A stretch of DNA of 32,000 nt from Moraxella nasicaprae (GTDB taxonomy: Bacteria > Pseudomonadota > Gammaproteobacteria > Pseudomonadales > Moraxellaceae): positions 780,001-812,000 of the forward strand of contig NZ_CP089977.1 of the NCBI RefSeq assembly GCF_025643275.1. Reading direction: 5' to 3'. A program made the position numbers. Shown here piece after piece: positions 6,401-12,400 of the stretch (the first letter of the stretch is position 1; every line of letters starts with the position of its first letter).

Positions 6401-9400
6401 GCTGATGTCTTATTTTGAGTTGAATTGAGTATATTTTAATACAACCATCATGCTTTGTCGATGTTCTCATGCACGACATTGCAGCCAAAAACTTATGGTC
6501 ATGGCAATATTTTTTTGACAAAAAAAATTAACTTTTTAATACCGACCACCAATAAGCGTCAAATATCTTCTGGCAAGCACTGGCTAATCAGGTCATGCGG
6601 TTGTAAGATGAGCAAAACGACTTAATCAAAAAATTTGCACGAATTGATGTCATCAAAGCCGTCAGCACTTGCCAAAAACATACACACAAAATCTGGCGGT
6701 CGTACAAAAATCATCATGCTCTTCTAGTGCCTGACGATTGGCTTGTTTTGCTTTATAGGCATAAGGGGTCATCGCAATCAATGCACTAAGCTGAGTACGA
6801 TTTAGCACAAACTCATGCTCAATATGATGCTCCCCTAGCAGCACAAACTCAGGCGATAGCGTCTGAATGAATTTTTGGGGCGTATGAGCAATGACCTCGC
6901 CAAATAATGCTTGACGCATCTCATACAGATGGGCTGGTGCAGGTGTCGCCATGACAAGCAGCCCATCATCACAAAGTACACGAATCATTTGTGCCACAGG
7001 CAAAGGACTAAATAGACTGGTACAGACATCAACCGCACCATCAGCCACAGGCAACACCGCTCCTGTACCGACCACCCAAGTGATGTTGCCATGACTGCCT
7101 TGTTGAGCGTGTTGTTGCTTATCAGCTTTGGCGGCAATTTGTACTGCTGACTTGGCAATATCCACCGCCACCACCTGCTTGGCTACACTTGCCAAGCCTG
7201 TCGTATAATACCCCTCGCCACAGCCAATATCGACCAACACATCGACCGATGGCTTGTACTGATGAATGATGGCAGGTAGAGCGTCTTTGAGTGGCTCATA
7301 AAATCCTGCCGATAAAAATTGACGGCGAGCCAGCACCGCCTCTGGTGTGTCGCCAGGATTTTTACTGCGTTTGTGCTGCACAAGGTGCAAATTGACATAG
7401 CCTTCTTTGGCAATGTCAAAACTATGATTATTTGGACATCGGTAAGTGCGTTCGTGCTTGTCGAGAGCAAGCTGGCAAATAGGACAGGTCAGCATCATCT
7501 TATCTTATCGTCAATCAATTGGCTCTATTTTAGCATAAATTGGCGTATCGCCAGCATTTTTGGTTAATATTGCTATTATATTTCTAAAATAGATAAATTT
7601 TTACAATTTATTTACAAAAAATCTGTAATAAATTCGCCAAAACCTAAGTCTAATACGCCAAGAGCAGTATTCTGTTCTTAGTTTGCGTGATACAATACCA
7701 AGTAAATGTTTGCATTGGTGCAAATATTTCGTGCATTGATGCCAATGTTTACTTGGTTTTTTATAATCAAGTTTTTTTCTAAGGAATTGTCATGAAAAAA
7801 TTAGCAAAAACCGCCCTAGTAGGCTCTTTGGTAGTGGCAGGCGTTAGCCCTTTTACAATGAATGCAATGGCACAAGGTTACCAAAACCAACCTGCCAAAT
7901 GTGCAAAATCAGATAAAAAATGTGCCACCCAAGCCAAAAAAGCCGAAGCTAAGTGTGGCGAAGGCAAATGCGGTGGCACGGCTGCTGCTGGCACAACCAA
8001 AAAAGCAGACGCTAAATGCGGCGAAGGCAAATGTGGTGGTACAGCAACAACCGCACCAAAAACCACCGAAGCCAAGTGTGGCGAAGGCAAATGTGGCGGT
8101 TCTAAATAATTAACCATCATCAATTCCCCAACCTTTATCATCGGAGATACATCATGAAAACCAAAACTTTGGCAAAAACCGCTCTACTAGGCACACTATT
8201 AGCAGGTACTGTTGCTTGCTCACAACAAGAAGCTAAGCAAGAACAACCTTTTGAAGCCAAGCCAATGGAGCAAGGCTATCAAAATGGCGAGAAAGCAGCA
8301 GACGCAGCCCAAGCTGGTGCAGCAGATGCCAGCAAAGCCGAAGAAGGTAAGTGCGGTGAAGGCAAATGCGGTGGTGCAGCTGCTACTGGCACAGACGCTA
8401 AGGCAACCGAAGGTAAGTGCGGTGAAGGCAAGTGCGGTGGTGCAGCTGCTGGTACTGACAGCAAAGCTGGCGAAGCATCTTGCGGTGGCAACAAGACAAC
8501 CGACAACGCAACCGCCCCAGCGACAACCGAAAGCAAATAAGACTTGCTTAACTTATCATAACGGTAATTGGCTTAATTGCCGTTATGATTGAAATAAAGT
8601 TTATTTTTTATGTTTAATGACCAATCAACTGTCGTTAAACACAAAAAATAAATTAAATGCCTAAATGAGGGTTATTAAAATGAGTAAAAAAATATTAAAA
8701 GGGGCAGGTTTGGGCTTTCGCCGTGAATTATGCACCCAAATGCAAAATGACGATTTATCAGGCATTGATTTTTTTGAAGTATCGCCTGAAAATTGGATTA
8801 ACTCAGCAGGGCAAATGGGCGGGCGTTATGAAAAAATGCTCAGAGAATACACCGAACACTTTCCTTTTATTTGCCACGGTCTTTCTTTATCCATTGGTAG
8901 CAGTGCCAAATTGGACATAGACTTATTAAAAAATACCAAAAAATTTATGCAAGCCCACGATATGACGCTCTATACCGAGCATTTGGCGTGGACTTCTGAT
9001 GATAAGGGGCATTTGTATGATTTGTTGCCCATTCCTTGCACCGATGAAGCGGTAAAATGGACAGCAAATCGGATTAAACAAGCCCAAGATATTATGGATA
9101 TGCAAATCGGCTTTGAAAATGCCAGCTATTATTATCAGCCGCCAGATAGCGATATGAGCGATGCCCAGTTTATCAGTGCGGTGGTCAAAGAGGCTGATTG
9201 TTTACTTCATTTGGATATTAACAATATTTATGTCAATAGTCAAAACTTTAACTTTGACCCCATTGAGTATTTACATCAATTACCCTTAGAAAAAGTATGT
9301 TATATGCATATTGCAGGGCATTATGTAGAAGAAGATGGCTTTATTATTGACACACACGGGGCTGATGTTATTGAACCTGTTTGGCGACTGCTTGATGAAG

Positions 9401-12400
9401 CCTATGCCGAAATCTACAAAAGAACAGGCAAAAAGGCAGTTGAAATTCCAACTTGTTTGGAGCGAGATTTTAATTTCCCCCAATTAGATAGCCTAATGAA
9501 TGAAGTTAATTTAATTCACAAAGCCCAAGCCAAATTTAATGACCAAATCAAATTAACTGCTTAATGGATTTTGATTCAATAACCAAAACCATTTTAATTT
9601 AATGACTTCCTGCAAAACTAGGTTTTCCGTTCGCCCTGAGCTTGTCGAAGGGTAGGAAAACCATTATGGTTCGACAAGCTCACCACGAACGGTTTTCCTT
9701 GTTTTTGAGTTTTGCAGGAAGTTTAATGACTTTTATTGTAATAAATGGATTGGTTGATGATACCAATCCATTTTGGAATACCCAATGAGCCTATCTTTAT
9801 TAGCCCCTTATTCTTTAAAAAAATTCCAATTAGAATTTGGCGATTATTTACGCTTACAACGCCAAAGTCAAAATGACAGTATCCCAAATCGTGTTGGCAA
9901 AGTTTATCAAGACTTAATTTTTAATAATGTGTGTGGCTTTTTAAATCAATGTTTTCCCATTTGCAAAAAGCTGTTGGGCGATGATAAGTTTAGAACCTTG
10001 TGTTTGTATTTTTTTCAAAGATACCCCACCCATTCGCCTTATTTTACCGAAATTCCAATGCAGTTTGTGGAATTTGTATCACAAATATTAAATAATGAGC
10101 AGGATAATTGGCTAAGTCCCTTATCTATATCTGATGAAGAGATTGATTTTATTCCCAAGTATTTGGACGAGCTTGCTCATTATGAATGGTTAGAATTATT
10201 TGTGGATACAATGCCCAATAATGAGCATAAACTGATTTTAAAAGACGATGAATTAACAACTTGCTATGCTTTAAATAGTACAGTACAAAATTGCCATTAT
10301 ACTTATCCTGTACAAACCATTAGCCCAAACAATGCTAACAATATTATGCCAAGTGATACTTGTCTTGTGGTATTGCGAGTTGGTGTAGAAGTTAAATTTG
10401 TTGCCATTAATGTTTTGACTTATTTTTTTATTGACTTTTTAAAAGAATGTCATACAGTTTATACAGATAAAAAAACTTTATTAACCGACTTTGCCAATAG
10501 CATTGATTATCCTGATATTGATGGGCTTATCAATTTTGCTGATGATTTATTTTTAATGCTTAGCAATGAACAGATTTTAATCAAACAATAGATTTTTGAT
10601 TACAAATAAAATTGTTAATCAAATCAATCAAAGAATAAGGTATGAAATGAAAAAAATAATCGCCCTTTATCAAACATTCATCAATCAATTAAAACGCCTA
10701 GACTTTATTGGACTGTTGGCACTTAGAATTTATCTTGCTCCTATTTTTATTATTGCAGGACTTGCCAAATTAAATAGCTTTAATGACACCGCCCAATGGC
10801 TTGGCAACAGCGAATGGGGACTTGGTCTGCCCTTTCCTGCCTTGATGACGGCTCTTGTGATTTTGGCGGAATTGGTGGGCGGATTTGCCTTATTATTTGG
10901 GCTATTGACCAGATTTTTTAGCATACTTTTAATCATCACAATGGCGGTGGCAGGCTTTGCGGTGCATTTAAAAAACGGCTGGTTTGCCATTGCCTCAAGC
11001 GATGAGGCGACCAGCATTGCCTCCTTTTGGGCAAATGTTGGCTTTTCGTCCGCCCAAAATAGCGTTACCAATGCCCAAGAAGTTGCCCAACGATTAGACA
11101 AAGCCAAAGAAATTTTGCAAACGCACGGCAATTATGACTGGCTAACCGAATATGGCAATTTTGTCATTTTAAATAACGGTATGGAATTTGCCATCACTTA
11201 TTTAATTATGCTTTTGCCCTTATTATTTTATGGGGCGGGTAATTATGTTTCGCTTGATTATTATTTGAATAAATTTTTAAATAAAAAATAGTATTGTTAA
11301 TTGAGTATACTTTTCTGGAAAACCGTTCGTGGTGAGCTTGTCGAACCGCCACTGTTTTCCTAGACTTCGACAAGCTCAGTCCGAACGGAAAACCTTAAAA
11401 TCTATCTTTATTTAACAATACCTAAAAAATTTATCGGCTGATACCAAACAATGAATGATGATTATCAACAGTTTATTGCATTATTATTAAAAGAATGCCC
11501 AAAAAATAAGAATGGCGATGGTCATCATTCTATTGGCGATGTCTATTTGGCAAATTTGTATGAGCAATTATTAAAATTTGCCAAAAATCAATTGGACGAT
11601 GATGAATTGGCAAAGGACTGCGTACAAGAATGTTTAATATCAGCGATGCAATACAGCAACAAATTTAAGGGCAATAGTGCCTTTAAAACTTGGGTATTTG
11701 CCATTTTAAAACACAAAATTGCCGATATGATTAAATCTAATCAGATTTATATCAAATTAAGTGAATTATCGGATAATGACGATATAGAACTTTTTGATAT
11801 GGTGTTTGATAATGGCAAATGGCAGGGCGATTATACACCAAAAGCCTTTGATGAATCGTGGTGCAATCCAGAAATTCAAGCCCAAAATAAGGCATTTTGG
11901 CAGATATTGGAATATTGTTTGGAGCATTTGCCAGCCGAGCAAGCCAAAGTTTTTTTGATGAAAGAATATGTTGGGCTTGATAGTAAAGAAATATGCCAAG
12001 CCTTAACCATCAGTTCACAAAATTATTATGTCCTAATGCACAGAGCCAGACTTAATTTACAGACTTGTTTGACACGGCATTGGTTTGTAGAATAGGCTTG
12101 TAGAATAATTTTGTAGAATAATAAGGAACATCAATGAAAACTTGTCAAGAAATTAGCCAGCTTGCCAGTCGTGCTTGTGATGAAAAAATCAGCCTAATGG
12201 AAACGGTGGAATTAAAAGTGCATTTGATGATGTGCAAAAACTGTCGTCATTTCTATGACAACAACAAAATATTAAGCAAAATACTAAACGAACACAAAAA
12301 CACAACCCCAAACGAACCAAAATAACTGCTCTTTATCCAAAAAATCCTTTATAATGACTTGATAAATTATCCCAAAGGACTTGATTTTGTCTGGCAAAAA

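Follow-up and report, generated by a model that had tools for sequence, protein, structure and literature searches.

A probable Moraxella version of the Hvf gene cluster joined to a sigmaE/ZAS anti-sigma regulator in Moraxella nasicaprae

The 32,000-nt stretch of Moraxella nasicaprae DNA analyzed in this work (the window) contains an operon that very probably represents the Hvf ("oxazolin"/captophorin) cluster in its Moraxella form, fused to a sigmaE/ZAS anti-sigma regulator, as in Neisseria. The operon is real and intact, and is of the stress-induced type making Cys-modified, copper-binding secreted peptides known from Haemophilus and Neisseria. It encodes two HvfA-family precursors, the MNIO maturase HvfB, HvfC, the DoxX-like protein HvfX, an ECF sigma factor, and a soluble ZAS anti-sigma factor. 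A sequence-only reading had described seven same-strand genes with short gaps, and an ORF check located all seven on the + strand where that reading had placed them (span 7792-12325). The description of the gaps as short holds only in part: those between consecutive genes are 44, 139, 220, 55, 159, and 38 nt, and the two largest (220 and 159 nt) each contain a palindromic repeat element. Nearly all of the supposedly odd features of this locus are either already described or strain-level repeat insertions. The sole mildly new feature is the pairing of an SPI-type with a lipobox-type precursor, which recurs in another Moraxella-like contig (L013) that is more distant and has a different neighborhood. 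This analysis established the gene content, the protein families, the lipobox, the ZAS residues, the status of the repeat insertions, the presence of predicted RNA hairpins, and the operon's conservation within the genus.

The first precursor gene, hvfA1 (7792-8109, +), encodes an SPI-type protein of 105 aa with eight Cys residues, namely, two near the N-terminus and six in three KCGEGKCGG cassettes, which is the Cys layout of the HvfA from nontypeable H. influenzae (NTHi). The second, hvfA2 (8154-8540, +), encodes a lipobox-type protein of 128 aa with two such cassettes and a degenerate SCGG. The five repeats that encode the cassettes belong to a single direct-repeat family (D12). Both proteins pass the KCGExKCG_twice motif model (NF050137; 49.5 bits for A1 and 41.1 for A2, cut-off 19.5), and both fall below the cut-off of 95 bits in the HvfA equivalog model (54.8 and 28.7 bits, respectively). 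In A2, Cys22 lies behind LGTLLAGTVA and conforms to a PROSITE-type lipobox rule (LAGTVA-C22); the lipobox is kept in four orthologs, including those of L001, L013, and L014. The same A2 protein is encoded on the Logan contigs L011 and L012. In agreement with the sequence-only reading, there are two precursors, one of them predicted from its lipobox to be lipid-anchored. Oxazolins with a lipobox have been described before, and for one of them, NedA, triacylation and modification were demonstrated experimentally (PMC13056109).

Apart from the two precursors, which pass the motif model, every protein of the operon scores above a curated NCBIfam cut-off. HvfB (8680-9564, +) scored 381.4 bits with NF003818 (cut-off 360) and 311.8 bits with PF05114 (DUF692); it matches PDB 3BWW (E = 4.5e-66) with the HGLSLS, EN.SYY, HLD.NNIY, HIAGH, DTHG, and LERDFNFP motifs aligned, and its score with the BufB model (239.6 bits) is below the cut-off of 310. 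HvfB is 84-89% identical to its counterparts in M. oblonga, M. boevrei, and M. sp. Pampa. The DUF2063/RRE-type partner HvfC (9785-10591, +) scored 170.4 bits with NF050145 (cut-off 142) and also matches PF09836 (DUF2063), PF22106, NGO1945_C, and PDB 3DEE (NGO1945; E = 2e-4). HvfX (10647-11291, +), a DoxX-family membrane protein with approximately four hydrophobic segments, scored 223.3 bits with NF050144 (cut-off 80) and 76 bits with PF07681. These results agree with every family named in the sequence-only reading (PF05114, DUF2063, DoxX, Sigma70_r2/r4_2, and zf-HC2). Its core identification of a DUF692 maturase, a DUF2063 protein, and a DoxX protein with EGKCG-type Cys-repeat precursors and ECF sigma/ZAS neighbors is borne out by the profile and PDB matches; every profile search that it had named as a possible refutation gave a favorable result.

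The ECF sigma factor of the sigmaE/RpoE2 type (11451-12095, +) has Sigma70_r2 and r4_2 domains and scored 199.1 bits with TIGR02943 (cut-off 162.2). Three Moraxella genomes have homologs with 52-65% identity at the corresponding position. The next gene (12134-12325, +) encodes a 63-aa anti-sigma factor of the MseR/HrsE type, for which we found matches to NF052368 antisigmaE (54.8 bits, cut-off 50) and zf-HC2 and no hydrophobic segment, in agreement with its earlier description as a soluble ZAS regulator. Its Cys4, His30, Cys34, and Cys37 are at the exact positions mutated in NMB2145 (MseR), in which the Cys residues are required for anti-sigma activity (PMC2893595). For promoters, matches were scored at 17 positions against the published Neisseria consensus GTMAGBWTT-N12-13-CGTCTAAH. 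In related loci (L001, L002, L005, L008, L013, and L014-16), the locus-best match lies directly 5' of the first precursor gene and has one or two mismatches. A weak candidate sigmaE-type promoter in the window (GTAATAAAT-N13-AGTCTAA; 7625-7653, +) sits where these relatives have clear promoters; it has four mismatches and does not rise above the background of the window. The candidate at this position in the sister strain likewise has four mismatches and is no better than background, and another weak candidate in the window begins at 7488. Therefore, sigma-dependent autoregulation can be assumed with less confidence for this locus than for its relatives.

The sequence-only reading had also pointed to a MITE splitting the maturase pair and to an attenuator-like hairpin in the leader. 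Both are real. The element between hvfB and hvfC (9607-9721) is a MITE-like palindromic insertion of 115 nt. It ends in inverted repeats (TTCCTGCAAAAC / GTTTTGCAGGAA) and has a copy of a 9-bp direct repeat, TTTAATGAC, on either side (9598-9606 and 9722-9730). Its site is empty in L011, a strain with 97% identity, and the element is thus a strain polymorphism. Predicted folding of 9604-9726 gave approximately -60 kcal/mol for either strand, and the whole intergenic stretch (9565-9790) gave -80.9 kcal/mol. The core of this element recurs at 11317-11395 and is also found in M. osloensis and Sphingobium plasmids. The second palindromic element (11292-11421) abuts the hvfX stop codon in the gap before the sigma factor gene, and its 79-nt core is 89% complementary to that of the first; the stretch 11285-11455 folds at -48.8 kcal/mol (z = -6.7). 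In M. oblonga, M. boevrei, and M. sp. Pampa, just ~10-25 nt separate hvfX from the sigma factor gene. The L011 contig ends inside the second element, which indicates that this strain carries it too.

The leader hairpin (7697-7765, +) has a 25-bp stem (7697-7757) followed by UUUUUUAU (U6), and looks like an intrinsic terminator or attenuator. It is strand-specific: for the stretch 7690-7770 alone, the predicted folding energies were -29.2 kcal/mol for the + strand (five G-U pairs) and -19.3 kcal/mol for the - strand, and the leader as a whole (7662-7800) folds at -40.6 kcal/mol (z = -5.0). Besides the window, the same-species contig L011 alone has the hairpin; five other Moraxella-like loci lack it. 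Because the MITE is polymorphic and the leader hairpin species-specific, neither counts among the conserved components of the system, in contrast to their earlier treatment as system features. Two further stem-loops follow the precursor genes on the + strand (8555-8589 and 8598-8654; -41.9 kcal/mol and z = -6.5 for the region 8555-8654), with U-rich runs at 8591-8618 and 8665-8673, respectively. All seven Moraxella-like loci compared have a strong stem-loop at this position, and the sequences are unrelated.

By analogy with characterized homologs, from which chemistry, metal binding, regulation, and localization are taken, the system may work as follows. Without stress, the zinc-binding anti-sigma factor would keep the ECF sigma factor inactive; HOCl- or peroxide-type stress would oxidize its Cys ligands, and the freed sigma factor would transcribe the operon, including its own gene, from a promoter 5' of hvfA1. 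The stem-loops 3' of the precursor genes probably stop or stabilize a part of the transcripts, leaving more precursor than maturase mRNA. In the cytoplasm, HvfB, as an iron- and O2-dependent MNIO, and HvfC, as the substrate-binding partner, would turn each KCG Cys into a 5-thiooxazole (-4 Da per Cys). The oxazolone/thioamide chemistry previously assumed for HvfA has been superseded by this assignment, which comes from an independent group (PMC13097082) and from the original laboratory (bioRxiv 10.64898/2026.07.17.739211). HvfBC modifies six Cys residues of HvfA, and the modified HvfA binds Cu(I). Both peptides are predicted to be exported via Sec; A1 would be cleaved by signal peptidase I and reach the periplasm or medium, and A2 would be acylated at Cys22 by the lipoprotein pathway and anchored to the membrane. 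The products may bind Cu(I) and protect the envelope by buffering copper and oxidant stress.

Even for homologs, a role in protection against copper is not firmly established, and the system could mainly be an envelope defense against HOCl and peroxide, with the 5-thiooxazoles as sacrificial or redox-buffering thiol-like groups and copper binding as incidental. The regulator is a redox-sensing ZAS protein, HOCl induces the hvf (doxX) genes of H. influenzae through RpoE2/HrsE along with msrAB (PMC7907618), and a Microbulbifer homolog is neither copper-induced nor clearly protective. However, Cu(I) binding is common to modified HvfA, fontiphorin, gonophorin, and the bufferins, the last of which protect against copper, and the two roles are compatible; we consider a mainly oxidant-directed function possible but rather unlikely.

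It also seems improbable that one precursor alone is the true substrate and the other a decaying duplicate being lost. This idea comes from the retention of one precursor each in related species, namely, the A1 type in M. boevrei and M. sp. Pampa and the lipobox type in M. oblonga and L014, and the degenerate cassette of A2 would fit it. Yet both ORFs are intact and above the motif-model cut-off, A2 is 100% and A1 ~95% identical in L011 despite a 3% difference in DNA, the pair is found again in L013, and HvfBC accepts even short fragments as substrate. Long palindromes within the operon could lower expression of hvfC-hvfX and the sigma pair, and in the extreme the insertions may have broken the operon, with transcription halting at the palindromes and the system partly inactive. 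The very stable hairpins predicted for both elements and a U-rich stretch 3' of the first would allow this, but neither element was terminator-like in a terminator scan, and all seven ORFs are intact and, except for A1, 98-100% identical to those of the strain without the first element. Both strains carry the second element, which thus appears to be tolerated. We regard a broken operon as the least probable of these explanations, and favor an intact Hvf-type system in which both palindromes are likely selfish insertions that the operon tolerates.

The local architecture, which the sequence-only reading had been unable to place, has published counterparts. The six-gene order hvfA-B-C-X-sigma-anti-sigma is common to M. 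oblonga, M. boevrei, and M. sp. Pampa, and the same six gene families form the rpoE operon of Neisseria meningitidis and N. gonorrhoeae (NMB2140-NMB2145 and NGO1943-NGO1948; product "gonophorin"; PMC2893595): DoxX, an HvfA-type EGKCG precursor, DUF692, DUF2063 (NGO1945, PDB 3DEE), ECF sigmaE, and a small soluble ZAS protein that shares Cys4/His30/Cys34/Cys37 with the Moraxella anti-sigma factor. Autoregulation of the Neisseria operon acts through a GTAAGGTT-N12-13-CGTCTAA promoter, a motif also present in the Moraxella relatives but degenerate in this strain. Differences include the position of the DoxX gene (first in Neisseria, after hvfC here), the number of precursors (one versus two), and the repeat insertions, which are Correia elements located elsewhere in Neisseria. 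In H. influenzae, the HvfA of hvfXABC has the layout of A1 (Sec/SPI signal, two N-terminal Cys, and three double KCG cassettes), and HvfB, HvfC, and HvfX of M. nasicaprae pass the NCBIfam models built on that system. RpoE2 is controlled there by the 67-aa cytoplasmic ZAS anti-sigma factor HrsE, but this pair lies elsewhere, beside msrAB, and acts in trans rather than from within the operon (PMC7907618). H. influenzae has a single precursor, without a lipoprotein form.

The two-precursor and lipid-anchor layout also has precedents, in lipidated NedA (PMC13056109) and in the tandem precursors of bufferin clusters (PMC12452194). NedABC of Neisseria dentiae produces a lipidated oxazolin, a RiPP-lipoprotein hybrid, whose precursor combines an SPII lipobox with EGKCG repeats, as A2 does by sequence; experiments on NedA confirmed both the modification (-4 Da per motif) and the triacylation. 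Unlike in NedABC, the lipobox precursor in M. nasicaprae is in tandem with a non-lipidated paralog. Bufferin clusters (BufABCD; sigmaF/NrsF, e.g., in Caulobacter) have the MNIO, DUF2063, and DoxX core in common with this locus, and likewise have Sec-exported Cys-rich precursors that acquire 5-thiooxazoles and bind Cu(I). Some of them have an adjoining ECF sigma/anti-sigma pair, tandem precursors, or lipobox variants. Their precursors are of the DUF2282 or 6/12-Cys types and their anti-sigma factor is the membrane protein NrsF, whereas the Moraxella locus has EGKCG repeats and a soluble ZAS protein.

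The open reading frames (ORFs) listed over window positions 6500-13500 contain seven plus-strand genes, namely hvfA1 (7792-8109), hvfA2 (8154-8540), hvfB (8680-9564), hvfC (9785-10591), hvfX (10647-11291), and the genes for a sigma factor (11451-12095) and an anti-sigma factor (12134-12325). The sequence-only reading had described these genes as one operon with short gaps, and the seven ORFs were confirmed at its coordinates. In operon order, the intergenic gaps are 44, 139, 220, 55, 159, and 38 nt; the description of short gaps holds in part but fails for the two longest (220 and 159 nt), each of which contains a palindromic repeat element.

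For the enzymes, the profile matches point to the Hvf family. The ORF of the MNIO maturase (8665-9564) matches Pfam MbnB_TglH_ChrH (PF05114, 312 bits) and belongs to the HvfB subfamily according to NCBIfam (NF003818, 381.4 bits vs. a cut-off of 360); in the alignment with PDB 3BWW (E = 4.5e-66), the motifs HGLSLS, EN.SYY, HLD.NNIY, HIAGH, DTHG, and LERDFNFP are matched. The bufferin subfamily BufB was rejected for this maturase (239.6 bits vs. a cut-off of 310), as were the methanobactin MbnB, ApyH, and ChrH subfamilies, each under its NCBIfam cut-off. The hvfC ORF (9773-10591) matches DUF2063 (PF09836, 72.4 bits) and NGO1945_C (PF22106, 29.2 bits), passes the model for the HvfC partner protein (NF050145, 170.4 bits vs. 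a cut-off of 142), and aligns with PDB 3DEE, which is NGO1945. The hvfX ORF (10596-11291) matches Pfam DoxX, encodes approximately four hydrophobic segments, and passes the HvfX model (NF050144, 223.3 bits vs. a cut-off of 80). The remaining two genes encode an ECF sigma factor (Sigma70_r2, PF04542, and r4_2, PF08281) and a zf-HC2 anti-sigma factor. On these matches, the locus is an Hvf/oxazolin (captophorin) biosynthetic cluster with a sigmaE/MseR-type ECF-ZAS pair. The system had thus been identified correctly, with the DUF692, DUF2063, DoxX, and sigma families that had been named found by Pfam and NCBIfam; in the searches that had been proposed against the Hvf and Buf models, HvfB and HvfC pass and BufB does not. 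Exact-sequence look-ups of HvfB (with two start codons), HvfA1, and the anti-sigma factor returned zero matches, and only HvfA2 was matched.

Both precursors carry the expected Sec signal and repeated (E)GKCG motifs. HvfA1 (105 aa; hereafter A1) has a hydrophobic N-terminus, Cys37 and Cys44, and three (E/D)AKCGEGKCGG cassettes, and HvfA2 (128 aa; hereafter A2) has two EGKCGEGKCGG cassettes and one degenerate EASCGG. The KCGExKCG cassettes number three in A1 and two in A2, both proteins pass the KCGExKCG_twice model (NF050137; 49.5 and 41.1 bits, respectively, vs. a cut-off of 19.5), and a five-copy direct-repeat family in the DNA corresponds to the cassette-coding parts. Neither reaches the strict HvfA equivalog model (NF050188; 54.8 and 28.7 bits vs. 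a cut-off of 95), and therefore A1 and A2 are members of the HvfA family without one-to-one equivalence to Haemophilus HvfA. The N-terminus of A2 (MKTKTLAKTALLGTLLAGTVA-C22-S, with LGTLLAGTVA-C22) conforms to the PROSITE-type lipobox rule, and this lipobox is also kept in three related loci (L001 from M. oblonga, L013, and L014). With a predicted SPII signal ahead of the core, A2 is a candidate RiPP-lipoprotein hybrid of the NedA kind. The A1- and A2-type classes are alike over the first ~14 residues, and A1 looks like A2 minus 10 residues, the putative deletion having taken away the lipobox Cys.

A scan of species-representative genomes assigned the window to Moraxella and found HvfB homologs with 89, 86, and 84% identity in M. 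oblonga, Moraxella sp. Pampa, and M. boevrei, respectively, and with ~60% identity in various other Gammaproteobacteria. All three Moraxella genomes have the gene order hvfA-hvfB-hvfC-hvfX-sigma-anti-sigma, with a single precursor gene and an hvfX-sigma gap of ~10-25 nt; the precursor is of the lipobox (A2) type in M. oblonga and of the A1 type in M. boevrei and M. sp. Pampa. A Logan contig (L011) has 96-98% DNA identity to the window, which suggests that it is probably from the same species; both precursors are present in it, the A2 protein being identical and A1 having six extra residues. The more distant L013, with an HvfB fragment of 93% identity, has tandem precursors, one SPI-type and one lipobox-type, in a different neighborhood, and L014 has a lipobox-type precursor alone. 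Given this distribution, with both types in the window, L011, and L013 and one type elsewhere, the tandem pair is recurrent; it is probably ancestral for part of the genus, and other lineages would have lost one gene or the other.

The sigma factor has regions 2 and 4 (TIGR02943, 199.1 bits vs. a cut-off of 162.2). The anti-sigma gene is located directly downstream at a gap of 38 nt, and its product passes the antisigmaE model (NF052368, 54.8 bits vs. a cut-off of 50), has zero hydrophobic segments, and contains H-x3-C-x2-C plus an N-terminal Cys (Cys4, His30, Cys34, and Cys37) that match NMB2145 (MseR) of N. meningitidis. In NMB2145, the same positions were mutated, and the Cys residues are required for anti-sigmaE activity (PMC2893595). 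We scanned every locus on both strands for the published neisserial consensus GTMAGBWTT-N12-13-CGTCTAAH. In eight loci (L001, L002, L005, L008, L013, and L014-L016), the top match of the locus is found immediately 5' of the first precursor gene and has one or two mismatches out of 17; these matches represent six distinct sequences, as L014-L016 share one. These top-of-locus matches in related loci provide strong evidence, at the level of promoter sequence, for a sigmaE-driven Hvf module in the genus. The positional candidate of the window and L011, however, at 7625-7653 (GTAATAAAT-N13-AGTCTAA), has four mismatches and is not above background, and a second weak candidate begins at 7488. SigmaE autoregulation is therefore a putative feature in the species of the window. 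An initial promoter pattern that was unique in the window had been partly derived from the window itself, and the site is not significant under the published-consensus scan. A sigma-70-like site at 7739-7767 was given no weight, since sigma-70 consensus matches were not enriched (21 vs. 20.2 in shuffles). A terminator consensus scan was likewise not enriched (4 vs. 5.7 in shuffles), and the MAFFT alignment of upstream regions was uninformative because the sequences are too diverged.

A hairpin is located between the candidate promoter and A1; its 25-bp stem spans 7697-7757, and UUUUUUAU comes next. For the leader (7662-7800), the predicted folding energy is -40.6 kcal/mol (z = -5.0). For 7690-7770, the sense fold (-29.2 kcal/mol, five G-U pairs) is markedly more stable than the antisense fold (-19.3 kcal/mol), which argues for a role at the RNA level. 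The hairpin, which has no Rfam family at gathering score, may be a transcription attenuator, an mRNA stabilizer, or the end of a short RNA. The sequence-only reading had noted an attenuator-like hairpin in the leader; it is present and sense-specific but is not a conserved feature, being found only in the window and L011; it is missing from the leaders of the other Moraxella-like loci, which are 40-110 nt long. A 29-codon ORF (7706-7795; MFALVQIFRALMPMFTWFFIIKFFSKELS) lies inside the hairpin and overlaps the A1 start codon at ATGA; no ribosome-binding site is obvious, and the ORF is probably spurious. Two more stem-loops are located 3' of A2 (8555-8589 and 8598-8654; z = -6.5), and all seven Moraxella-like loci have a strong stem-loop, of differing sequence, after their last precursor gene. 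A leaky terminator that lifts the level of precursor mRNA above that of enzyme mRNA is a common arrangement in RiPP operons, and by analogy these stem-loops would be consistent with such a role. The stem-loop after the precursor gene of M. oblonga (L001, 3272-3605) is homologous to the hairpin at 8555-8589 (arms ATAACGGTAATT and AATTACCGTTAT); in M. oblonga, the arms are ~200 nt apart, and the extra sequence is itself highly structured, as if inserted into the loop.

For both repeat elements, the predicted folds are as stable on one strand as on the other, and the structures are therefore those of DNA palindromes rather than strand-specific RNA. The 115-nt element at 9607-9721, in the 220-nt hvfB-hvfC gap, has terminal inverted repeats, a 9-bp flanking direct repeat (TTTAATGAC), and no coding capacity, and L011 has an empty site with one slightly diverged target copy. 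These features identify the element as a true MITE-like insertion that is polymorphic between strains; the MITE reported to split the maturase pair is real, but as a feature of the system it is a local accident. A 79-nt core of this element occurs again, inverted and 89% complementary, at 11317-11395 within the second element (~11292-11421), which adjoins the hvfX stop codon. The second element is shared by L011, as that contig breaks off within it, and is absent from the three other Moraxella species. Unannotated stretches of M. osloensis and Sphingobium plasmids also contain the core. All operon ORFs are intact despite these elements. Neither element has an Rfam family at gathering score; sub-threshold matches to RF02901 (Aggregatibacter sRNA 41) at 9626-9775 (+) and 11241-11391 (-), with 41.7 and 33.1 bits vs. 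97, suggest that the "sRNA" of this family is not an sRNA gene but a dispersed palindromic repeat related to the elements. The hvfX stop TAG (11289-11291), which borders the second element, reads TGG in L011, so that HvfX there extends three codons into the element (217 vs. 214 aa).

Several other features flank the operon. A GT4 glycosyltransferase gene (Glycos_transf_1) just downstream appears to be split between two overlapping ORFs (12415-12861 and 12804-13577) and may be frameshifted or a pseudogene. Further downstream are convergent IgA1-protease/SPATE-type autotransporter genes (13725-19511, +, and 20273-25582, -) with Peptidase_S6, beta-solenoid, Pertactin, and Autotransporter domains. 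Their 3' parts form a 3557-nt, 100% identical inverted repeat with arms (15998-19554 and 20230-23786) 675 nt apart, and the shared part encodes highly repetitive coiled-coil sequence of the EAERLAKLEEEKR type. This repeat could be an artifact of the assembly, an invertible segment, or the outcome of recent duplication or gene conversion. Upstream of rlmA, an IS630-family insertion sequence (5490-6431) that is absent from L011 occupies a TA site, with its ORFs split by a frameshift (HTH_Tnp_IS630, 5539-5907; DDE_3, 6024-6428). A cluster of four tRNA genes (70-484, -) is located at the left edge.

In a tentative and rather doubtful joint reading, A1 and A2 would be two differently placed forms of one thiooxazole metallophore, and the leader hairpin would be an attenuator or a short-RNA source. 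Soluble A1 would work in the periplasm or be secreted, lipid-anchored A2 would be at the membrane or on vesicles, and the sense-strand hairpin with its U-tract would be a species-specific attenuator or release a short stress-induced RNA. If true, Moraxella would have, through the two precursors, a copper/oxidant buffer in two layers. The genus Moraxella comprises mucosal commensals and pathogens, and the Hvf system of H. influenzae is needed for host-cell invasion and in vivo survival. With a soluble and a lipobox precursor side by side and close relatives that have one or the other, the locus is a handy system for studying the contribution of lipid anchoring. Mildly new features are the combination of an SPI-type with a lipobox-type precursor within a single Hvf operon, which is seen repeatedly in part of Moraxella, and the sense-specific leader hairpin; otherwise, the locus confirms existing knowledge without changing it.

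Moraxella is not mentioned in the literature that we found on Hvf-type clusters, and the accessible published descriptions of such clusters include neither paired SPI and SPII precursors nor a leader attenuator. In nontypeable H. influenzae HvfA, HvfBC converts the six cassette Cys, and the product binds Cu(I). The oxazolone/thioamide modification quoted in the sequence-only reading has been superseded; first described as such, it is now assigned as 5-thiooxazole for oxazolin, gonophorin, and fontiphorin, for which the name "captophorins" was proposed (PMC13097082), and the original laboratory now also reports 5-thiooxazoles (bioRxiv 10.64898/2026.07.17.739211). The conversion of Cys to 5-thiooxazole (-4 Da, with absorbance near 305 nm) and the binding of Cu(I) are known only from homologs. 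There are thousands of EGKCG/oxazolin precursors, and most of them are accompanied by the core genes "in various combinations." Lipobox variants are known for bufferins and oxazolins, and tandem precursors have been noted for bufferin clusters (PMC12452194). NedA of N. dentiae is both modified and triacylated (PMC13056109); triacylation was shown for NedA, whereas A2 shares the SPII lipobox and the repeats by sequence alone. The architecture that had been called unplaceable is accounted for: a lipidated precursor and the linkage of a sigma factor to a soluble ZAS protein are already published, and the MITE and the leader hairpin of this species are local accidents. In N. meningitidis, NMB2140-NMB2145 form a single sigmaE-autoregulated operon of a DoxX-like gene, three "hypothetical" genes, rpoE, and mseR, and NGO1943-1948 of N. 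gonorrhoeae have the identical arrangement (PMC2893595). Later work characterized gonophorin, the product in N. gonorrhoeae (PMC13097082), and NGO1945 is the DUF2063 protein of PDB 3DEE that aligns with HvfC here. In H. influenzae, RpoE2 and the 67-aa ZAS anti-sigma factor HrsE are required for HOCl induction of four hvf genes (PMC7907618). With this locus, Moraxella joins Neisseria and Haemophilus as a genus with the Hvf/captophorin and sigmaE-MseR module, here with the sigma pair inside the operon, whereas the RpoE2 and HrsE genes of H. influenzae are located away from the hvf genes.
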